A stretch of 64,000 nucleotides of DNA from Acidobacteriota bacterium (GTDB lineage: Bacteria > Acidobacteriota > Thermoanaerobaculia > Gp7-AA8): the NCBI GenBank assembly GCA_019244185.1, contig JAFATB010000020.1, forward strand, positions 1-64,000, given 5' to 3'. The notes below the pieces were generated by a model. That model saw nothing but the letters and a program-made list of their open reading frames with translations, did no database searches and was not told where the DNA came from. The translations under genes were made by a program, and so were the position numbers. This document shows positions 54,201-64,000 of this stretch, piece by piece. Numbering within the stretch: position 1 is the stretch's first letter; each line of letters starts with the position of its first letter.

Positions 54201-54770
54201 CTACGCAGCGTGCTTCGCACATCCGCTGAAGCGCGTCGGCGGCGAAAGCGCCCGCCGATCGCGTTCGCCAACGTCTGCGCGTTGATCGCGAAAGCAGAGG
54301 ATGTCGAGCCTTCCGTCGCGCGCGGTCACCGACGCGACGTGACGCAACCAGATGATTCGATTGGAATTCGCGTTGCGATGCAGGCGTGGCACGCGAATAC
54401 AAATGCCGAAGACCGATCCAATCGTCACCGTCCGAGCGCCGTCGCCCACGCGTACCGCAGTCACATTCGCTGACAGAGGAAGCCTGAAAGCGAAGCTGCC
54501 GGAATAACCGCCCGGCTTGTCCTTGGGTTGTATTGCGGATCCATATACGCGCACCAAAACTTCGTCGCCATCTTGAATATGGGTAATGCGCGTAATCTTT
54601 CCTCCACCATTTCTTAGCGTGCCAGACACTAGTAGGCTCCGACCATTTTGCGGGACGGCGTGAAGGTCCACCAAACTGCTGGCTGGGTACACGTAAGTAC
54701 GCCGAAAACCGACGAGTATGATTATCAACCCCGCGCCTAACACCGGCACAATGTATTTCATGGTCTTCAA
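54201..54770 (-). CDS. Putative Rhs immunity protein (membrane-anchored)
   Basis: Start overlaps the Rhs stop (TTG 54770, or ATG 54761); N-term hydrophobic MKYIVPVLGAGLIIILVGF; noticeably AT-richer sequence. Confidence 0.55.
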   Translation of the reverse strand: MKTMKYIVPVLGAGLIIILVGFRRTYVYPASSLVDLHAVPQNGRSLLVSGTLRNGGGKITRITHIQDGDEVLVRVYGSAIQPKDKPGGYSGSFAFRLPLSANVTAVRVGDGARTVTIGSVFGICIRVPRLHRNANSNRIIWLRHVASVTARDGRLDILCFRDQRADVGERDRRALSPPTRFSGCAKHAA

Positions 54771-57700
54771 TTGCGGCTCCTCCAGCGTACAACGCGTGCG
54801 CCTAATCCGCGATTCGCAGCTCGGAGATGTCTCGCCAGTGTCGCCGGATTATGATAAACATCGCCGGGGTCGAAATCCGTATATCGTTCGCCGGTGGCCG
54901 CAGCCCACGCATCAGCAGCGAAGCCGCTACACGGATGGGTCGCCTGCCAAGCACCCGTACCGAGTGCCCGGTATCGTTCGACTGTCTTGCGGAGGGCGGC
55001 CTCCTGTTGGTCGTCGATCCACATGGTTCGACTGACCACATCGTACTCGCCTGTTCGCTCAAAATAGTCGCTCCGATGATCCAGTTCCCAATTTTCGTTC
55101 AGTCCCCGCGACGCCTTTACTCCGAAGCCAAACGTCCCCCACGATGTGGCCTCACCGTCGTCCGACTGATAGACGATGAACGCGTGGCCATCCCACACAG
55201 GAGCAGAATTGCCGGCGTTTGCTTCGCTGTAAATCGTGACATAACCCGACAAGCCATCCGGATCCGACGCATTGACGGCGTTCGCGTGGCTGTACCGGTA
55301 AAGATTCCTATCGCCACCGCCGAAGCCGGTCGGATCCGCCTGCGTATACCGCCCCCACCCCGCCCTGTACCACCGGAAGATGTTGTAGTTCGTGTCGCTA
55401 CGCGAGGCTGTTTGTTCCTGACCGGGGAACCGCAGGATCTGATCCGAGGTAGTGCCGGTGCGTTGTTTGTAGACGGCGCCGAACGGCTCGTACTCCGCGC
55501 GCCAGACGACGCTGGCGTCGGCGTCGGTCTGGAGAATGGGAGTACCGAGGTGGTCGGTGAAGGTGTAGAGGACGTCGCCGGCGGGTGAGACCTGGGCGAC
55601 CGGCTGGTCGTCGAACCAGACGTAGTCGGCGCTCAGGTCGGTGCAGCCGTGCAGGCCGCAGTTCTGGTCGGGTGCGTTGCGCGCCAGAAGGTGCAGTTCG
55701 GGTGAGTACACGAAGGTGCTCGTCGACGACGATTGGCTGGCGTGGAATGTCTCCGTGATACGCACGCCGCGGCCGTCATATTGGTATGTGGTGCCGCTGC
55801 TCAGCGAACCGACGGATTGCAGGAGGTTTCGCGCGCTGTAGCTGCCGGACGAGGTCTCGTTGCCGGCGCTGTCGTACGTCACGGTCGCAGGCGCGGTTCC
55901 GCTGACGGACTGCAGCTTCGGCGTCGTTCCAGAGTAACTGAACGTCAGCGAGCGGGTGCCGAGGGTGAGCGTCTGCATGTTGCCCATCGCATCGTACGTG
56001 TAGCTGCCGGTGCCCCAGAGCGACGCGCCGCCCGTCGCGGTGACGAGGCGGTGGAGATCGTCGTAGGCGAAGTCCCGATTGTACGCCGCGCTGGTGGCGT
56101 CGTGGATCTGCGTGATGTCGCCGGCATCGCTGGTCGCATACGTATAGTGCGCGATCGTGCCGTTCGGTCCGACGAGTTGGTTGTCGGACGGCAGGTAGCG
56201 GCTGGTGTAGGTCGTCGTCTTCGTGGCACCGTTGCCGAAAGCGAGTTGCGTCGCCGGGCCGAACGGCAGATATGACGCCGCCGTGACGACCGGCGTTCCG
56301 GACGCCGTGACACTCGAAGGGCGGCCGGCGAAGTCGTAGGTATAGGTCACATCGAGCGTGGACGGATAATAGATGTGATTGCGGTTGCCATCGAGGTCAT
56401 AGCGGTAGCCCACGGACGATCCGTTTCCGTCGATGGTCGTCAGGAGAAGGCCGCGGCGGTCGTAACAATACGCCGACTCGCCGACGGGATCGTTCATCGT
56501 GGTGAGCCGGCCGACGCCGTAGCCTCCCCCGCACGCATCGCCATCGTATTCGTAGGTCACGGTCTCCGTATCAGCGCCGGAGCGCGCCGACTCTGCTTCG
56601 GTGAGGCGCCCAACGGCATCGTACGTGCGCGTGGTCGTAGCACCGTTGGCGTCCGTCATGGACGTCAGATCACCGCCAGCGTCATAGACGTAGGTCGTGG
56701 TGCCGGTGACGGGGCTGACCTGCCGCAGAAGCTGACCGAAATCGTCGAACGTGTACGTGGTGATGTTGCCGTTCGGATCCGTGACCTGCGAGACATTGCC
56801 GGCAACGTCAGATGCGTATTGCGTGACGACGGAGCCCGAGGTCGAAGACGAGAGCGTCTGCGTCACCGACCGCACGCGACCGGCCGGATCGTACGCATAT
56901 TGCGTGTTCGGTGTGCTGTGGTTCTCGTCCTGAATCGTGGCGATGCGGTCGGACGGATCGTACGTGTACGAGACGAAGGTGTTATCGGCGTTCACCGCGT
57001 GTGCGATGCGGGACAAAGTATCGTACGTCCACGATGTGCGGTGCTTCTCTGCCCACGCATTATTTTCACGCGCGAGCGCACGCTGCTGGCTCGGTTTGCC
57101 GGTGGCCGCGTCGTAGTCGTACTCGAGACGCTCGCGCAGGTCATTGAGCGCCGGCCCACGCGAGATCGCGCTGATTCGGCCGCGGTCGTCGTACTCGTAC
57201 GCCGTCGCCGCGCCCGTCGGTTTCGTGACGCTCGCGAGCGCGGCAGCGCCGTTGTACGTCCACGTCGTGGTGAGATTGGTCGCGCACAGCGGATCGTACA
57301 CGGTGTCGCAGCCGTGGCCGCCCTGGATCGTTTGCGTCAGCACGCGGCCCAGATCATCCGTCGCCGTTACGGTGACGACCTCGTTCGGATCGACGATGCG
57401 TGTCGCGTTGCCAAACGCGTCGTAGGTCTCGAACCGGGTCACGTGACCGGCGGCATCGCGCGTGGCGGCGAGGCGTCCGCGCGCAAAGGCAGGGACCGTG
57501 CTCTCGTTCGGGTAATAGACGTACTCCGTTACGTCCGCGACATCCGTTCTCGGGCCGTCGACGGACCTCGGCAGATGCGGCTGCGGCGACGCCGTCCACG
57601 TGAAGGCCCCACCCGGCTCGAACGCCGCGCCCTCGGTGCCGTCGTACATCGCGGTCGTGGTCGTACGCGTCGTCTGCTGCTGCGTCACTGAACCCGTCCA

Positions 57701-60700
57701 GCCGGTCACCGTGCTGACCAGCAACTCGCCCGATACAAGGTCATACGTCCGCTGTTCGGTCGTCGTTCCACCCGAATGGAGCGCGCTCGTCGTCGTGATC
57801 GTCGTCGGCTTGTCCGGCCAATGCGAATCGGCGTACGCAAACGTGGTGGTCACAGCGGCGCTGGTGCTGGTCAGTGTGACTGTCGCCAGTGAGGCGGACG
57901 TCTGGCGGCAATGATCGCTCACCGTCGACGGATCGCAGGCCGCCGGCCGCAGATACGTCTCTGTTGCCGTCAGTTGCGTCGGCGAATAGCTGTAGAGCGA
58001 GATGTAGCCGTCGGAGTTCTGCCGCCGCAGGACGCGGCCTCCGCCGTCATAGGCAACGACTTCGTCCTTCCCACAACTGCTGCAGCCGCCGTCATGACTC
58101 GTCGGCCGGTATGCGCCGCCGATCGGTTCCAGCTTCGCGTCCATGACCGCGCCGGCGCTGGTCGTAACTCTCGTCATGGTCGTGCCATCCGGTGCACTGA
58201 GGTCGTACTGGACGTTCGCGATCTCGTCCGAGGGACCGGACGAGCTCGTGGCGCGGCCGGTCGCGTCGTATTGATGCGATTCGATCAGTTTCCCCGCACC
58301 GTCGCGGATCTCCGTGATGCCGCTGCTGCCGTACACGTACGTCCGCCAGGTTCCTTCGGGACTGGTGACCTGCGTCAGTGCGCCGTTGGTGTACGCGTAT
58401 GTCCAGGTGAATCCCGCTGTCGCAATGGACGTGACGCTGCCGCTGGTGAGCGTCATGTCCCATACGACGCCGCTCCACGAGTCCGTGGCGGTGAGGCGCG
58501 TCAGTACGCCGTTCGTATAGAAGCGCTGCACGCTCGTACGGCGACCGGTGCCGACGTCGCGCAATCCACCGAAGAGACCATCAGTATTGAAGATCGTCTC
58601 GATTGTACCGCCGGGCGGGCGGTAGACGTATCCGCCAGCAGTCGCGTCGAACCGAAGCGTCCCCTTCGCGCCGGACGAGGTGGGCCACACTTGGACGCCG
58701 TCCGGGCCGAAGGCGATCTGCTGGTTATTAGCCGTCGTGAACTGCACGATCTCCGGCGCTTCCTCGGTGCTCCCCTCGACGTTCAGCTTCTGATCGAACA
58801 TCGTCATCCAGCCGGGACCGAAGATGCCGCCCTGTCCTTCGCCGCTGTCGAACGTGCGCTCGAGCGCGCCGCCCATCAGCGGCGGCAGCGGATCGACTTC
58901 GGCATAGCGCATGTTGCCGTCCGCCACGAATACCGGATCGCCGACTGTCCCATTGCAGACATTGCATTCCGTCGCCGCGTAGCCGCGCTGGAAACTCTCG
59001 CAGCCATGCGTCGGGTCGCTGTAGCGGGCCTCCGCGATCAGCGGGATCTGACGTGCGCTCGACGGCACCGTGAAGTCGCTCACCACGAAGGGACCGCTCG
59101 TGATCAGCGCCGGGTCATCGCCCGCCCACTCGTGAACGACCGTGCTCGGGAACGACCGCCCCATCGCGTCCGTCCACGCGGCGGTCCTCAAGACGAGCCG
59201 CCGCCCGGTCGCCTGCTCGGGAAAGTTGTAGCTCACGACCACGCTGATGAGATTTCGGCGGACCTTCTTGCTCGTAATGACAGGGTCGCTGTGGGGCAGC
59301 GGCGTGCACGCAGAGCAGCTTCCCACCGACTCGTCGTTGCTGTTGCAATAGTCTTTGAGGCTGAGCGTCATGCACGCTTCGGTGAGCGTCACGTTTTCGA
59401 ATGCCACGGCGTGCGCCGGAGCCGTGATCGTAACGATCAAAGGATCACCCTCGTTCTCGACGGGCAACGACGAGACAGGCTCGGCGTCAGAAGGAGTAGT
59501 ACACGAGGGCGCTGTCCAGTCGAATCGCATCAGGCCGGCCGCGGAGAAGTCTCCGTTATCGGGCGTAGTTAGCGCATAAAGCCCTGTAGAAAAATCTCCG
59601 ACCGCGTTGACGTAGGGTAAGAGCCCGGCAAATGCTATGGATCCGACTGCGCCGTCCGGGGCGACGACTCGCAAATGATCTTCCACTTGCCCCGGATCGG
59701 CATACATGCTTCCGTCATCGCTGAACGCCGTAACGTCAGAAGAATCTGGAAGGACAATACTCCACAGGCTTTGCCCGGAGGCGTCGAGCCGTGTCGCAGG
59801 CGGCCACAGTGATGTCGTGCCGTCGTCGTTGAAATGCATGCGTGTGGCGGTGTTCGTGGTGGATGGTTCCAACGCCCATTGCACCGAGCCAGCGTTGACC
59901 CGGGCCACGAACGCATGGCTCGCATACTCATTATTGATGATGTGTTGTGCGAACGTGCCGGACATCAAGTACCCACCCGGTGCGGGTGCCACCGCGTGAA
60001 GGTAGGAAACGGGCGACGGCTCGTCACCGCCGGAAACCATCGCGGCGAAGGAAGTGGTGGACACAATTTGGCCGGCGTCGCTGATTTCGGCGAGTACCGC
60101 GCCCGTGAGCCGGTCGGCATCAACCACCGAGCCGACGATCACCAGCCACCGGTCCGGCGTGACGCGTGCCAGATACTGAGCGGTCGTACGGTTGTCCTCC
60201 GCGCCTGCGTCAACCGTTTTCGCCCACAGGACATCGCCATCGGGCGCTACACGGAACAGAACGGATTGAATTCGCGCGTCCGGCTCATTGGCGGACGTAT
60301 GCGCAAGCACGATCGCACCGCCGTCGTCCGTCGGAGACAACGCGTCGCCCCGCAGGCAGGGAGCCAGCGAATACCGGTGCCGCGCAACTGCGCCGCCGGT
60401 GCCATCGACTGTCCACAATTCGACAGCCTCGCCGTTCGCCCAGTAACACTCGAGTCTATTGGAGTCGGACTGCGGCGCATGCCGCGCAAGCGCGCCACGC
60501 CGGCTGGTCAGGCGATTGCCTGCACCCTGCTGCGAACTACCCGCCGCAACGTCGAAGAGAAAGAGCGCACCACCGTTTGCAGAATCGACGGCCGCCACGG
60601 GATCAAGGTCGCCGCCGTCCGCAGGCGGGTCGAAGGTTTGGACCCAGGTATTCGTTCCTGCGCTTTGGACATGGTATGGCATCCTGAATGCCATACGCGA

Positions 60701-60799
60701 AAGCGCCGCGCTGTCGTTTACGGTGCCAGCACGCACAGTGCTTCCCGCGCCTGCAGCGAGGATAAAAATCGCAGCGACCTTCAGCGTTCGCATTCGCAT
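54767..60799 (-). CDS. Rhs/YD-repeat protein with signal peptide, DUF6531-like region and C-terminal toxin domain
   Basis: Signal MRMRTLKVAAIFILAAGAGSTVRA; VGDPVFVADGN...FGPGW; many YD repeats; core DHLGTP, YEPFG, RFPGQ, GRYTQADP, NLYRY...DPDGL, then a ~160-aa tip. Confidence 0.93.
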   Translation of the reverse strand: MRMRTLKVAAIFILAAGAGSTVRAGTVNDSAALSRMAFRMPYHVQSAGTNTWVQTFDPPADGGDLDPVAAVDSANGGALFLFDVAAGSSQQGAGNRLTSRRGALARHAPQSDSNRLECYWANGEAVELWTVDGTGGAVARHRYSLAPCLRGDALSPTDDGGAIVLAHTSANEPDARIQSVLFRVAPDGDVLWAKTVDAGAEDNRTTAQYLARVTPDRWLVIVGSVVDADRLTGAVLAEISDAGQIVSTTSFAAMVSGGDEPSPVSYLHAVAPAPGGYLMSGTFAQHIINNEYASHAFVARVNAGSVQWALEPSTTNTATRMHFNDDGTTSLWPPATRLDASGQSLWSIVLPDSSDVTAFSDDGSMYADPGQVEDHLRVVAPDGAVGSIAFAGLLPYVNAVGDFSTGLYALTTPDNGDFSAAGLMRFDWTAPSCTTPSDAEPVSSLPVENEGDPLIVTITAPAHAVAFENVTLTEACMTLSLKDYCNSNDESVGSCSACTPLPHSDPVITSKKVRRNLISVVVSYNFPEQATGRRLVLRTAAWTDAMGRSFPSTVVHEWAGDDPALITSGPFVVSDFTVPSSARQIPLIAEARYSDPTHGCESFQRGYAATECNVCNGTVGDPVFVADGNMRYAEVDPLPPLMGGALERTFDSGEGQGGIFGPGWMTMFDQKLNVEGSTEEAPEIVQFTTANNQQIAFGPDGVQVWPTSSGAKGTLRFDATAGGYVYRPPGGTIETIFNTDGLFGGLRDVGTGRRTSVQRFYTNGVLTRLTATDSWSGVVWDMTLTSGSVTSIATAGFTWTYAYTNGALTQVTSPEGTWRTYVYGSSGITEIRDGAGKLIESHQYDATGRATSSSGPSDEIANVQYDLSAPDGTTMTRVTTSAGAVMDAKLEPIGGAYRPTSHDGGCSSCGKDEVVAYDGGGRVLRRQNSDGYISLYSYSPTQLTATETYLRPAACDPSTVSDHCRQTSASLATVTLTSTSAAVTTTFAYADSHWPDKPTTITTTSALHSGGTTTEQRTYDLVSGELLVSTVTGWTGSVTQQQTTRTTTTAMYDGTEGAAFEPGGAFTWTASPQPHLPRSVDGPRTDVADVTEYVYYPNESTVPAFARGRLAATRDAAGHVTRFETYDAFGNATRIVDPNEVVTVTATDDLGRVLTQTIQGGHGCDTVYDPLCATNLTTTWTYNGAAALASVTKPTGAATAYEYDDRGRISAISRGPALNDLRERLEYDYDAATGKPSQQRALARENNAWAEKHRTSWTYDTLSRIAHAVNADNTFVSYTYDPSDRIATIQDENHSTPNTQYAYDPAGRVRSVTQTLSSSTSGSVVTQYASDVAGNVSQVTDPNGNITTYTFDDFGQLLRQVSPVTGTTTYVYDAGGDLTSMTDANGATTTRTYDAVGRLTEAESARSGADTETVTYEYDGDACGGGYGVGRLTTMNDPVGESAYCYDRRGLLLTTIDGNGSSVGYRYDLDGNRNHIYYPSTLDVTYTYDFAGRPSSVTASGTPVVTAASYLPFGPATQLAFGNGATKTTTYTSRYLPSDNQLVGPNGTIAHYTYATSDAGDITQIHDATSAAYNRDFAYDDLHRLVTATGGASLWGTGSYTYDAMGNMQTLTLGTRSLTFSYSGTTPKLQSVSGTAPATVTYDSAGNETSSGSYSARNLLQSVGSLSSGTTYQYDGRGVRITETFHASQSSSTSTFVYSPELHLLARNAPDQNCGLHGCTDLSADYVWFDDQPVAQVSPAGDVLYTFTDHLGTPILQTDADASVVWRAEYEPFGAVYKQRTGTTSDQILRFPGQEQTASRSDTNYNIFRWYRAGWGRYTQADPTGFGGGDRNLYRYSHANAVNASDPDGLSGYVTIYSEANAGNSAPVWDGHAFIVYQSDDGEATSWGTFGFGVKASRGLNENWELDHRSDYFERTGEYDVVSRTMWIDDQQEAALRKTVERYRALGTGAWQATHPCSGFAADAWAAATGERYTDFDPGDVYHNPATLARHLRAANRGLGARVVRWRSRN

Positions 60800-60938
60800 G
60801 GTGAGTTTCCTTTTCATCGAACAAAATCGACGGCACGAATCTGTTACTCCCGATACGCTTCGCGTCGTCGTGATGCGGCGTGCTCTCGCTCTTTTGGCTG
60901 TAGGCGGTCGCATCGACCGACAGCGTACGCGAACCGCG

Positions 60939-60954
60939 CGAACATAAATGTTCG
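60939..60954. promoter_or_regulatory. Palindromic operator candidate between the divergent rhs and sigma genes
   Basis: CGAACAT-AA-ATGTTCG; a second palindrome CGGTCG-CAT-CGACCG at 60905-60919. Confidence 0.4.
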
Positions 60955-60980
60955 TTCGATGTGGATGACAATAGGTAGGG

Positions 60981-61907
60981 ATGGACCGCTTTCGCGACAC
61001 TCCTCCGGTGGTGAAGCGGGACGAGCAGACATGGTCGCGCCTGGGCGCGTTCTTCCGTGATCTACACCTGAGCCCTGCGGACGTTGCGCGGCGCACGCGG
61101 CGAATCGCGAGTCTGCTGCGCGTCGAACCGCTGAGCGCCGGGCATGTCCGGCGGCTCTTCCGCAGCACGGAGGGCGCACGTACGCAGACGATCCGGCTCC
61201 TGGTGGCCGTCGCCCGCAGCCTCAGCGGCATCCTGGTGGAAGCGCACGACTTGTTCGACCTGGAACCGCGACTGGCCGCCGTCGCGCGAGCGGCCATCGC
61301 CGGCGATGGCCATCTGCCTGATAGCTGGAGGCCGCGCCTTTCGGTATTCTCGCCACCGTCGGCGGTTCGTCTTGGGAGAATGCCTTTGACATCGGACGGC
61401 GAGCATCGCTCCGCTGCGGAAACCCTCGAGGTGATGTATCGCGAACACGCGGGACTTCTGCGCGCGACGGCACGCGTTCGCTACCGTATCCCAGCCGAGG
61501 ACATCGATGCGCTGGTGAACGACGTCTTCGCCTCGCTGTTGGAACGCCGCCCACGTATCCACGACGCACGCGCGTTTCTCCTCGGCGCGATTGGCAATAG
61601 CTGCCGCCACTACTGGCGTAAGCGACGGCACGAGTCGCCGCTACTCCCAGAACATGAAGAGGCGAGCGACCCAGCGGCGGCGGATCGCATCGAACAATGG
61701 ACCAGACATTCGGAAGTAGGAGCGATCCTCGCGCGAGTCGGACCGAAGTGCCGCGACATCATGCGGCGGCACTACCTCGAGGGGGAGCTGGGACCCATCC
61801 TCGCTAAACGGCTCGGCACGACCCCCGGTTACGTCAAACAGCTGCTCCACGGCTGCCTGAAACGTGCGCGCGAGGTCTACAGCAGGCTAAAGGAACCACG
61901 TGTATGA
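60981..61907 (+). CDS. ECF sigma factor with N-terminal XRE/HTH-like extension
   Basis: Region 2 EDIDALVNDVF...RAFLLGAIGNSCRHYWR; region 4 KCRDIMRRHYLEG...LAKRLGTTPGYVKQLLHGCLKRAR; N-term LGAFFRDLHLSPADVAR...LSAGHVRRL...HDLFDL is HTH-like. Confidence 0.82.
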   Translation: MDRFRDTPPVVKRDEQTWSRLGAFFRDLHLSPADVARRTRRIASLLRVEPLSAGHVRRLFRSTEGARTQTIRLLVAVARSLSGILVEAHDLFDLEPRLAAVARAAIAGDGHLPDSWRPRLSVFSPPSAVRLGRMPLTSDGEHRSAAETLEVMYREHAGLLRATARVRYRIPAEDIDALVNDVFASLLERRPRIHDARAFLLGAIGNSCRHYWRKRRHESPLLPEHEEASDPAAADRIEQWTRHSEVGAILARVGPKCRDIMRRHYLEGELGPILAKRLGTTPGYVKQLLHGCLKRAREVYSRLKEPRV

Positions 61908-63265
61908 CGCATTACACCGACGACCAGTGGCTGGATTTCGCCGACGAATTCGTCGCCGCAGCGGACAGACCGCACATGGAACAGCATCTCGCGACGTGCG
62001 GCCAGTGCCGTTCCACGTATGCCCAAGTCGAGGAGTTTCGGTCCTCGCTCCAGCATCCGGACACGTGGCTGGTGTGCGACGCTCTGGTCAACACGGAATC
62101 GGCCCCTCCCGCATGGCTTCAGGAACAAGCCCGCCGCATCGACCGCGACAGGATCGATGCTCAAAAACGACTTGACAGTGCGCTCATCTCTCCGGCAGCG
62201 TTCGCCGTAGCCGCGATCGAGCAGCACGACGAGTACTACACGTCTGGAACAGTGGAACTGCTGACTGCGACTGCGCGAGCCGTGCGGTACCGGCAGCCGC
62301 CTTTCGCAGCGACGCTCTCTGCGGCAGCAACGACGATCGGCACCCGCCTCGCGCGCGATGGCGCGCTACGATCGCACGTCCTCCTGACATACGCGTGGGT
62401 CGAGAGAGCCGCAGCGTTGTTTTTCTGCGGCCGCTATCGCGACGCCGAACACGCTCTCGATTCCGCGCAGGCAACGCTCGACGAACGAAATGATGGCGTC
62501 GCCGTGGACGCAGCAATCATAGGCCTCCTGCGTGCAACCATCTGCTCTGAAACGGAACGACCGCGGGAGGCCGCTGCCTTGGCTGCGGCCGCCGAAAAAC
62601 AATTCGTGGAGTTCGGCGACGAGCGTAATGCCGCGGGTGCCCGCTTGATCCAAGGCACAGTGGCATTCTTCGAGCGCGATTTCGTGACCGCCGCGGCGAT
62701 CTACGAAGAGTTGGTGAGTCGCGCGCGCGCCGGTTCCGACGCCGTCGCGCTCGCGAATGCACTGGGCAGTGCTGCAGGCGCCTACGTGAAGATGTCGCAA
62801 TATGCGAAAGCTGAGGCCTATCTGTTGAAAGTTCTGCCTCTGTGGGACGAACTCGGGTCGATGGTGAATCGGATTCGGGCGGAATGGGTTCTCGGCGTCT
62901 CCTATGCCCATCAGCGCCGGTTCGATGAAGCGATGCCTGTTCTCCGGCGCGCCATTCAGGAACTGGAAGCGATGGGCAGCGCGAACGACGGCGCTGTCGT
63001 GAGGCTGTACCTGGCCGAAGCGCTCTGGTTCGCAGGGCGCAACGATGAGATTCCGCCGGTCGTGGAGGGCGTCGTGGTCAAGCTCGCAGCCGAGGGAATG
63101 AGCCAGCGAGCAAACTACGCGATCGCCTTCCTCCGCGACGCGTTGTCCGTAGGCCGCGCCGACGGCGCATTGATCCAGCACGTACGGGACTACCTGGACG
63201 ATCTGTTATCGCACCGGAACGCCGAATTTCGGCCGCCACAGCCGGCCGGAGAAAAAAACGTCTAA
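61904..63265 (+). CDS. zf-HC2 (ZAS) anti-sigma domain + TPR protein, apparently soluble
   Basis: HYTDDQW...HLATCGQC (HxxxCxxC); start overlaps the sigma stop; TPR-like helices; no evident TM segment. Confidence 0.8.
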   Translation: MTHYTDDQWLDFADEFVAAADRPHMEQHLATCGQCRSTYAQVEEFRSSLQHPDTWLVCDALVNTESAPPAWLQEQARRIDRDRIDAQKRLDSALISPAAFAVAAIEQHDEYYTSGTVELLTATARAVRYRQPPFAATLSAAATTIGTRLARDGALRSHVLLTYAWVERAAALFFCGRYRDAEHALDSAQATLDERNDGVAVDAAIIGLLRATICSETERPREAAALAAAAEKQFVEFGDERNAAGARLIQGTVAFFERDFVTAAAIYEELVSRARAGSDAVALANALGSAAGAYVKMSQYAKAEAYLLKVLPLWDELGSMVNRIRAEWVLGVSYAHQRRFDEAMPVLRRAIQELEAMGSANDGAVVRLYLAEALWFAGRNDEIPPVVEGVVVKLAAEGMSQRANYAIAFLRDALSVGRADGALIQHVRDYLDDLLSHRNAEFRPPQPAGEKNV

Positions 63266-63336
63266 CCCTTCTCTCACCGTCGTCACCTTGTCATCAGGAT
63301 CGCGCGCCAACTCCGGCCGTTCCGAAAGAAGGTGCC

Positions 63337-63603
63337 ATGCGGAAACTTTCTCTTCCCCTCGTTCTCGTACTCACACTCGCGTCCGCCCTTCCCGTGCACG
63401 CCGCCTCGGCGTCTGCGCCGGCTGGGACACGCCTCGGCATCCGGTCAGCGCTGCAAGTCACTGCTCGGCTCCTCGCGAGCGATCCCTTCCTCGCGGCAAT
63501 CACGCCGGTTCTCCACATTTTTTCCGACATGCCCGTGCCGCCCATCCCCGCGCCGCCCAAGCAGACGGCGCCAACGATTTTCCCGGCGGCGAGAGGCCAA
63601 TAA
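63337..63603 (+). CDS. Small secreted peptide with Pro-rich motif
   Basis: SD GAAGGT; Sec signal MRKLSLPLVLVLTLASALPVHA; IFSDMPVPPIP near the C-terminus. Confidence 0.65.
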   Translation: MRKLSLPLVLVLTLASALPVHAASASAPAGTRLGIRSALQVTARLLASDPFLAAITPVLHIFSDMPVPPIPAPPKQTAPTIFPAARGQ

Positions 63604-63719
63604 ACCGATAGGTAGCGCGCGGCGACATCGACGTGGCGCCGGCGGTCGGAACCCTTCATCGGCGGCTCGCGATTCGATCGCGTGCGCTCGCATCGACGGG
63701 CCACGTGCATGCAATCTTG

Positions 63720-64000
63720 CGTCCGATTACCGGATTCACGTGTCCAGTTGCCGGACTCGCTCGTCCATTTCCCGGATTCAATCCAGAAATCTTGGCTTTC
63801 ACGCGTCCAGTTCCCGGATGCATCCCAGAATTTTCGGCTTTCATGCGACTGATTCTGGTTTTCATCCCAGAATTTCTGGCTTTCATGCGACCGATTCTGG
63901 CTTTCAATCCAGAATTTCTGGCTTTCATGCGAGCGATTCTGGCTTTCAATCCAGAATTTCTGGCTTTCATGCGACTGATTCTGGCTTTCAATCCAGAATT
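63720..64000. repeat. 21-bp tandem repeat (alternating 42-bp dimer), runs off the window
   Basis: Alternating TTTCAATCCAGAATTTCTGGC and TTTCATGCGACTGATTCTGGC, degenerating leftwards; - strand reads 7-aa units such as MKARNSG/LKARISR. Confidence 0.9.

Follow-up and report, generated by a model that had tools for sequence, protein, structure and literature searches.

An ECF sigma factor, a soluble TPR-containing anti-sigma factor and a paired small gene in Thermoanaerobaculia: a possible peptide-responsive cassette

The RRNPP systems, for whose general description we draw on part of PMC9765709 and on abstracts, include Rap-Phr, NprR-NprX, PlcR-PapR and AimR-AimP as well as Rgg-SHP and ComR-ComS. 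Signalling by peptides through cytoplasmic tetratricopeptide repeat (TPR) receptors is described, in the portions of the literature available to us, as a trait of Gram-positive Firmicutes and of phages. Sigma factors of the extracytoplasmic function (ECF) class whose soluble zinc-binding anti-sigma factor (ZAS) is encoded at the +1 position are known from similarly partial sources, ECF270/271 and ECF11-14 being examples; for ECF270, the covered part of the PMC7826278 supplement indicates that conservation of the gene context ends at the anti-sigma factor. The locus described here combines elements of both kinds. It lies in the first 64 kb of contig C11 (JAFATB010000020.1) from a soil-dwelling Acidobacteriota bacterium of the class Thermoanaerobaculia, whose assembly totals 5.3 Mb at 67% GC; this whole 64 kb stretch is called the window below. 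Three open reading frames (ORFs) on the forward strand, at 60981-61907 (308 aa), 61904-63265 (453 aa) and 63337-63603 (88 aa), make up a three-gene regulatory cassette of sigma factor, ZAS-TPR anti-sigma factor and small ORF that belongs to a large unnamed family. A first-pass annotation of the window had listed a helix-turn-helix (HTH)-ECF sigma factor, an overlapping soluble HxxxCxxC/TPR anti-sigma factor and an 88-aa ORF, and all of these have been found in place, as has the Rhs gene it described as divergent from the sigma gene, which begins 163 bp from the sigma start.

A small gene paired with ZAS-TPR genes

Five ZAS-TPR paralogues are present in the window's genome, between 1 and 11 copies in 22 of 24 other genomes of the genus (E <= 1e-20), and at least 11 in some genomes. 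A ZAS-TPR protein was found in 35 of 35 sampled genomes of the taxonomic family and in 80 of 151 genomes of the class (E <= 1e-10), and 1283 clusters (50% identity) matched at E <= 1e-30 when a profile was run on 1.84 billion cluster representatives. A protein homologue search gave three relatives of the window's anti-sigma factor, the closest at 63% and 56% identity. Searches of genome contigs returned no loci with a single protein as query and 33 with an alignment of the clade that we call C; two scans of metagenome contigs returned none.

The small ORF that follows these genes was defined by a fixed rule: same strand, a start no more than 350 nt from the upstream stop, a length of 18-130 aa, a mean hydropathy of at least 2.0 in an N-terminal 11-aa window, a Shine-Dalgarno sequence, and a tail containing P.P, PPG or IPG. 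Signal peptides across the small-ORF family were judged by this hydropathy rule and not by a predictor. Duplicate loci were merged before counting, leaving 72 distinct ZAS-TPR genes, and 1795 genes of the window's genome served as controls. The rule was satisfied after 55 of the 72 ZAS-TPR genes (53 of 70 without L015 and L021, whose genomes are flagged unpublished) as against 8 of the 1795 controls, two of those 8 being ZAS-TPR genes themselves. Five more loci (L013, L023, L042, L046 and L085) fit by eye, each failing one criterion. Conservation of the small ORF beside homologous TPR genes had been set beforehand as a test of the peptide-sensing idea, and it holds in several genera and in paralogue clades that branch deeply.

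Of the 69 ZAS-TPR genes that could be assessed in this respect, 37 have a sigma gene directly upstream. Among the 32 in which none was detected there, 30 belong to clade C, where the small ORF is nevertheless kept, at 31 of 32 assessable loci by eye and after 26 of the 30 sigma-less genes by the fixed rule; since this clade keeps the pair without an adjacent sigma gene, TPR gene and small ORF are the more constant unit. A hidden Markov model (HMM) was also built from 32 clade C small ORFs, none of them from the window's genome, and run against the 60,913 ORFs of at least 40 aa in that genome. Its first-ranked match was the ORF beside a ZAS-TPR gene on contig C13 (1e-12), its second the ORF beside a homologue on C17 (1.5e-5), and its fifth the ORF beside the other C13 ZAS-TPR copy; the window's own 88-aa ORF is too diverged for this model. 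The C17 ORF (G000:C17:82398-82643, minus strand; L006 2610-2810) is a family-type small ORF ending …PIVKVIKKLVVRIFGDGLVDPWPHH, and stands tail-to-tail with its weak ZAS-TPR homologue, not co-directional with it.

In the window, the small ORF (63337..63603, +) is preceded by the Shine-Dalgarno sequence AAGGTG at 63329-63334 and encodes a signal at aa 1-22 (63337-63402), a helical middle part, a proline-rich core from S63 to P74 (63523-63558; SDMPVPPIPAPP, with DMPVPPIP at residues 64-71) and a 14-aa tail. By rule-of-thumb reading, the signal has an MRK n-region, a 15-residue hydrophobic core and a VHA/A cleavage-type site. The small ORFs were compared with Pfam and NCBIfam and matched no family, giving only a chance-level match to TrbC at E 0.015, and a six-frame search with the 88-aa protein gave nothing below E 1e-3 in its own genome or in 40 relatives; the family was for this reason recognised by position, downstream of ZAS-TPR genes. 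Three other identities have been considered and rejected: a PEP-CTERM-like sorting signal, as no transmembrane helix follows the motif; a lipoprotein, as the cleavage site lacks a cysteine; and a precursor of a ribosomally synthesized and post-translationally modified peptide, as no conserved maturation genes lie nearby.

The precursors take several forms. In clade A, which includes the window, all 12 loci encode a signal peptide, a helix and an S-R-[LI]-x-P-P core, often with a tail of Thr, Pro and Asp; the core reads SDMPVPPIPAP in the window and SRLSPPLPAP in its relative G003. Clade C (31 of 32 assessable loci) has an MRSSSIKSL-type signal, a cationic amphipathic helix and [TS][VI]PxP, often as the final residues. 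Clade B, at 7 of 8 loci, has instead a mini-ORF of 22-24 aa with a strong Shine-Dalgarno sequence and a hydrophobic stretch followed by HRLSIPG[ST] (M..VVLILATMVVVYHRLSIPG[ST]). In G081, a genome of another genus, a small ORF is found at 8 of 11 loci, ending ...[LF]PPG at six and in other proline motifs at two. Many of the Sec-type precursors end exactly at ...PTVPIP, ...MTVPKP or ...ISLPPG. The core is repeated within the precursor three times in L010 and L072 and twice in L021 and L027, and tandem small ORFs occur at L065, L075 and L083. The mature regions carry amphipathic helices, examples being VVVKRLIKRFFG, IVRVIKLIKRVF and VRFVKFVKKVFG. The precursors of RRNPP systems likewise include Sec-type, short hydrophobic and multi-copy forms, which the types seen here mirror. 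The window's genome also holds a 24-aa mini-ORF, M..VDVVLILATMVVVYHRLSIPGS, after the C2 ZAS-TPR gene (G000:C2 ~261778-261852; L003 ~2925-2999), with the Shine-Dalgarno sequence GAAGGAGG; gene callers will probably pass over ORFs of 22-24 aa.

The regulatory proteins and their genomic surroundings

The soluble anti-sigma factor (61904..63265, +), whose start is joined to the sigma stop by an ATGA overlap, consists of an N-terminal HxxxCxxC (ZAS) region, an all-helical TPR superhelix and a conserved proline-rich C-terminal tail (EFRPPQP). The zinc-finger motif is H28-x3-C32-x2-C35, with C32 and C35 invariant across 112 aligned sequences. Pfam TPR_12 and TPR_1 score above their cut-offs; the Pfam zf-HC2 model gives 14.1 bits for the window's protein against a cut-off of 22.2, the C2 paralogue passing at 30.8, and the RsrA model TIGR03988 gives 17.2 bits against 62.5. 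For the ZAS assignment, the top sequence match in the PDB is the partner chain in the SigL-RslA entry 3hug, at E 0.14. An N-terminal HxxxCxxC in a gene at +1 of a sigma gene would place the protein in ZAS class I, with binding of sigma factor and zinc predicted. The protein contains no transmembrane-like segment, the top 19-aa Kyte-Doolittle mean being 1.34, and its AlphaFold2 (AF2) model has a mean pLDDT of 94.5 and 22 helices. The protein is soluble, and its TPR part is a candidate cytoplasmic peptide receptor. About half of the clade A anti-sigma factors (L012, L013 and L091-L094) start near the window's residue 41-44 and lack HxxxCxxC, yet still sit after a sigma gene and before a small ORF; this subclade seems able to do without the zinc finger. 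P0009, a 901-aa representative, has two stretches that match the ZAS-TPR profile, the better at residues 493-899, and may be a fused or tandem form.

In Foldseek comparisons of the TPR model, the eukaryotic LGN/Pins proteins come out best (E 8e-7 to 3e-5, TM-score by target up to 0.73), followed by RapJ-PhrC (3.5e-5), RapI, the phi3T Rap with its pheromone, RapF and NprR-NprX (3.6e-4), which makes Rap and NprR the nearest bacterial structures to this fold. Profile matches of the anti-sigma factor run in a similar order, with consensus TPR proteins (8e-27), LGN (6e-17, the best non-synthetic match) and kinesin light chain first and RapJ, RapF, AfsR and NprR ranked next (RapJ, RapF and NprR at 8e-10 to 6e-7). 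The C-terminal tail is conserved, F442 being present in at least 90% of the 112 sequences, and is proline-rich (EFRPPQP in the window, LFAPPP in clade C), non-helical and yet modelled at a pLDDT of about 88. Because it resembles the peptide cores, competition of the tail for the TPR groove is conceivable.

The sigma gene (60981..61907, +) encodes an XRE-like HTH at about aa 18-98, a low-confidence linker at aa 83-137 and the sigma2-sigma4 core at about aa 139-308. It is an ECF (group IV) sigma-70 factor: TIGR02937 scores 45.9 bits (cut-off 42.9) and Pfam Sigma70_r2 25.9 (cut-off 24), the sigma4 Pfam matches lie below cut-off (13.9 and 13.3 bits), and structures of ECF sigma factors are matched by the AF2 model with Z of 10-11 (SigW, SigL, SigK and RpoE at 10-10.4). 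According to the part of Casas-Pastor et al. 2021 drawn on here, N-terminal extensions are uncommon among ECF factors, and only the BldN type is named there as well described. The N-terminal 140-145 aa of the window's protein and of two orthologues gave no Pfam match or HTH family at E <= 10. Residues 18-98 (pLDDT ~70-85), however, were aligned to eight lambda-repressor/XRE-type HTH entries at Z 7.2-8.5 and a root-mean-square deviation (rmsd) of 1.8-3.4, among them a lambda-repressor-like protein (Z 8.5, rmsd 2.3, 66/66), TP901-1 CI (8.0), DdrO (7.5), C.BclI (7.3) and C.AhdI (7.2); the tool cautions that a Z below 8 can reflect a common arrangement. Structure matches from the Atlas for this region are to XRE/HTH_3 clusters at TM 0.43-0.64. 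The extension is therefore modelled as having an XRE/lambda-repressor-type HTH fold. It is common to the orthologues in G003 and G017 and to the metagenomic protein P0155 (71% identity), a protein homologue search having given only one relative for the sigma N-terminus.

The stretch that separates the anti-sigma stop from the small ORF holds a bipartite promoter-like motif, GTCTAAC-N15-GTCACCT (63260..63290, +), with CGTCACCTTG at 63281-63290. Every one of the 12 clade A loci has it, in the form CT(C/A)A(A/T)N-N13-15-GTCAC(C/T)T, right after the anti-sigma stop, and in three of them it stands only ~22 nt before the ATG; it is probably a promoter, possibly of ECF type. For the word GTCACCTTG, the genome has 39 occurrences, most of them within genes, and a degenerate bipartite pattern run on the whole genome gave 36 matches, mostly coding and not specific, while missing the window's own variant. 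Clade C has a distinct conserved box and, upstream of the small ORF, a CAGCGG..CCGCTG hairpin with one compensatory change (G-C to A-U). In 17 aligned loci (e.g. L038:3845-3955), codons 1-5 of that small ORF, ATGCGCTCTTCGTCC, show no nucleotide variation, third positions included, which would be explained by the predicted pairing of the AAGGAG Shine-Dalgarno sequence with codons 3-5; translation of the clade C small ORF may thus be under control.

Directly upstream of the sigma start is the motif TAGGTAGGG (60972..60980, +), and in the orthologous loci L009, L010 and L012 the sigma gene is preceded by GTAGGTAGGG, GTAGGTGG and GGAGGTAGGG; TAGGTAGG has 5 occurrences in the 5.3-Mb genome. A second TAGGTAG lies just past the small ORF stop (63609..63615, +), so that two of the 21 copies in the whole genome flank the 2.6-kb three-gene cassette, and these TAGGTAG(GG) words might have a regulatory role or mark the limits of the cassette. 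The Rhs/sigma intergenic region also contains the inverted repeat GAACAT-AA-ATGTTC (60940..60953), and no other GAAC-N6-GTTC occurs in the 64-kb window, the number expected there being 1.26. The orthologous locus of G003 has GGAAC-N6-GTTCC in the same relative place, and no such repeat was seen in that of G017; we infer that it is a candidate operator for the HTH domain of the sigma factor.

The divergent gene (54767..60817, -) encodes 2016 aa from MKRKLTMRMRTLKV, a start chosen by inspection, with a signal-like N-terminus. With Pfam matches to RHS_repeat (2.1e-37, 8 stretches), the RHS core (2e-9) and an N-terminal DUF6531 (6.7e-9), it is a member of the Rhs/YD-repeat toxins. A divergent Rhs/YD gene is found at 3 of 3 loci with an HTH-sigma factor (the window, G003 and G017) as against 0 of 8 clade A loci without the extension. 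In G003 it comes third in a divergent operon that encodes secreted FlgD_ig-domain proteins; in G017 it encodes a teneurin-like NHL/YD-shell protein, 1.3 kb from the sigma gene. The eight loci without the extension, with at least 5 kb of upstream sequence in six and at most 1 kb in two, gave no tblastn match to any of the three Rhs/YD proteins. There are about 6-9 Rhs loci per genome, and the three Rhs/sigma intergenic regions have no common k-mer of 8 or more. Being kin, the three HTH-sigma loci do not count as three independent events; the different architectures of their Rhs/YD proteins argue for a functional tie. The Rhs adjacency to HTH-sigma loci is not a one-off.

The Rhs, sigma, anti-sigma and small-ORF genes (54767-63603) have a G+C content at third codon positions (GC3) of 0.70-0.77, compared with ~0.83-0.92 in neighbouring and paralogous genes of the same genome; they may form an atypical island, possibly acquired or fast-evolving. 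Downstream of the cassette is a tandem array (window 63719-64000, running to ~C11:64130) in which a 42-bp unit with a sub-period of 21 bp is present in at least 4 copies at 93% matches; its 16-mer core is unique in the genome. Elsewhere in clade A, a 254-aa protein starting MADLFLSYAREDRQ, TIR-like by eye, is encoded beside a locus without the HTH extension (L097 6546-7310 and neighbours, in G177), and a secreted protein of ~690-730 aa is common to L097, L099 and L100. A look-up of sequencing runs for window 60700-63900 gave four DNA metagenome runs, three of which are possible sources, and no RNA run among those listed.

Possible roles of the small protein

The obligate pairing, the soluble receptor, the three styles of precursor and the cores that are repeated or C-terminal have led us to commit, at rather less than even confidence, to the reading of the cassette as a peptide/TPR switch that resembles RRNPP systems and has an anti-sigma factor as its output. 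In such a switch, the ECF sigma factor, which at this locus also bears an XRE-type HTH, would be held by the soluble zinc-finger anti-sigma factor, whose C-terminal TPR superhelix would be the cytoplasmic receptor for a cognate pro-peptide from the gene just downstream. To judge from its sequence, the small protein would be exported by Sec; it would then be trimmed to a fragment bearing the proline core, as the conservation and the repeated or extreme C-terminal placement of the cores suggest, and the fragment might be taken up again, for example via one of five Opp/Dpp-type binding-protein systems (five SBP_bac_5 genes are present in the window's genome). Entering the TPR groove and, more speculatively, displacing the receptor's own similar proline-rich tail, the peptide would alter the hold of the anti-sigma factor on the sigma factor. 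Feedback could follow through the small ORF's own conserved promoter-like motif, and the output of the HTH-sigma subclade probably includes the divergent Rhs gene, given their conserved adjacency. The first-pass annotation had proposed peptide sensing by analogy of layout; that analogy has been strengthened by the conservation, the precursor types and the TPR fold, and the proposal as a whole is partly supported, while the dependence of Rhs antagonism on density or kin, which it also raised, is purely conjectural.

Several observations weigh against this reading. Twelve of the 72 ZAS-TPR genes have no small ORF even by eye, and the HxxxCxxC N-terminus is missing in half of clade A. Binding of peptide to the TPR region is proposed from layout and analogy; a complex prediction of the anti-sigma factor (alignment of 20) with aa 23-88 of the small protein (alignment of 10), run without controls, gave ipSAE values of 0.01 and 0.01 and says nothing either way. 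The likeness to Rap and NprR is of the kind expected for any generic TPR array, and consensus TPR proteins and LGN score better. Since the organism is probably a diderm, a signal would face two crossings of the outer membrane. Most mature regions have a conserved cationic amphipathic helix, which suggests a role for a longer secreted product, and we know of no such helix in Phr-type pro-regions; in the window, moreover, 14 further residues follow the core. Cores are also near-identical within a genome: in G081, 6 of the nine small ORFs at eight loci end ...[LF]PPG, and the window's PVPPIPA is close to the PIPPIPA of C13 in the same genome. Shared cores imply cross-talk unless specificity lies upstream of the core, or else they may reflect a shared protease or sorting step. 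Finally, no motif is common to the Rhs promoter region and the promoter-like motif of the small ORF.

Alternatively, the small protein might itself be the regulated product, a secreted cationic amphipathic peptide (bacteriocin-like, membrane- or surface-active) made under the cassette's sigma factor, with the TPR region sensing some other cytoplasmic partner. We regard this as unlikely, though deserving of serious weight. It would account for the amphipathic helices and for the small ORF having a conserved bipartite promoter-like motif of its own; the pairing of the clade C ribosome-binding site with codons 3-5 suggests the tight control such a product might need, the near-identical C-terminal cores of paralogues would suit a common export or processing signal, and the Rhs neighbour is in keeping with a theme of antagonism. 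It sits poorly with clade C, which retains TPR gene and small ORF without an adjacent sigma gene, and with the mini-ORFs of clade B, which are too short for a signal peptide plus an amphipathic helix; the window's peptide, too, is not notably cationic, and conserved immunity or export genes are lacking nearby. A different use of the same parts, which we think improbable, is feedback coupled to secretion, in which the TPR region would bind the unexported precursor via its proline-rich core and export status would set the activity of the anti-sigma factor, with no re-import. TPR chaperones that bind type III secretion substrates, the co-activator logic of IpgC-MxiE and SicA-InvF, and the export of FlgM are precedents. 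A cytoplasmic receptor with an exported partner, encoded by adjacent and hence perhaps co-expressed genes, would fit this scheme, and by acting in cis within one cell it would cope with similar cores among paralogues; Sec export is constitutive and fast, however, which leaves the sensed quantity unclear, and processing to a short ligand accounts more readily for cores that are repeated or lie at the very C-terminus.

The 88-aa ORF might also be a chance frame in GC-rich DNA, or the antisense 138-aa ORF (63294-63710, -) the real gene, which would leave an ordinary ECF/ZAS pair. The empty six-frame and family searches are compatible with this, and GC3 is alike on the two strands (0.72 vs 0.71). 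Set against it are the positional counterparts of the same build, with the S-R-[LI]-x-P-P core, in every clade A locus, the family-wide association (55/72 vs 8/1795) and the presence of both a Shine-Dalgarno sequence and a conserved upstream motif, and the antisense ORF has no family match; we consider the idea very improbable. At the other extreme, the peptide-switch reading can be extended to a broader claim that we think doubtful: that this is the first cytoplasmic-TPR pheromone-receptor family outside the Firmicutes, with as many as a dozen peptide/anti-sigma/ECF channels working in parallel in a genome of the soil Thermoanaerobaculia, in which an exported, processed and re-imported proline-rich peptide displaces the tail and frees the sigma factor, the HTH-sigma subclade gating Rhs antagonism by density or kin.

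Relation to described systems

The first-pass annotation did not recognise the locus as a described system, and no description has turned up in the literature. No paper was found that joins RRNPP-type peptides with ECF or anti-sigma factors, though subscription journals may have been missed; zf-HC2 with a tetratricopeptide anti-sigma factor, or such a system in Thermoanaerobaculia, was not found, nor was a TPR-fused ZAS with a cognate small ORF found in print, and 'TPR' does not occur in the covered part of the PMC7826278 supplement. If the peptide-switch reading is right, the reach of signalling by cytoplasmic TPR receptors would widen to a major soil phylum that is poorly cultured, a peptide-gated soluble anti-sigma factor would be a new mode of ECF control, and there would be a testable handle on the regulation of Rhs toxins. 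Even if the peptide is only a regulated product, a large regulatory module that lacks annotation, and whose small gene has been overlooked, is worth recording.

The best structural match, to the eukaryotic polarity proteins LGN/Pins/GPSM2, is a likeness of the TPR_12-type repeat array only, the matched LGN entries being complexes with partners such as NuMA, Inscuteable and Frmpd4. In ECF42, as far as the available sources go, a TPR region is likewise the regulatory module of an ECF system, but it is fused to the sigma factor and there is no anti-sigma factor, whereas here it is fused to the anti-sigma factor and paired with a small ORF. ECF factors with a soluble ZAS (sigmaR-RsrA, RpoE-ChrR, ECF270/ECF271) have the same order of sigma gene and then soluble HxxxCxxC protein at +1, with translational overlap. 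In the parts of the literature covered, these sense redox state or singlet oxygen or are uncharacterised, and none is described there with a TPR array of ~350 aa or a conserved small ORF at +2.

The RRNPP systems are alike in placing the gene for a cytoplasmic TPR receptor beside a small pro-peptide gene, in having pro-peptides that are either Sec-type with a C-terminal active part or very short and hydrophobic, in carrying many paralogous cassettes per genome, and in the Rap/NprR fold that is matched here. They differ from the present family in host, which here is an acidobacterium and not a member of the Firmicutes, and in output, which here is a zinc-finger anti-sigma domain in place of an HTH or a Rap phosphatase/anti-activator domain; in addition, the sequence likeness of the receptor is no greater than to generic TPR proteins, the mature part of the small protein holds a conserved amphipathic helix, and peptide binding, export and import are here predicted only. 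The locus has the predicted hallmarks of an RRNPP system, namely a putative cytoplasmic TPR receptor and an adjacent gene for a small, apparently exported pro-peptide (signal peptides by the hydropathy rule), but as the anti-sigma N-terminus is HxxxCxxC and not an HTH or Rap-type effector, it has not been counted as a member. The cassette is a new combination of known parts, and belongs to a large family that has yet to be described.

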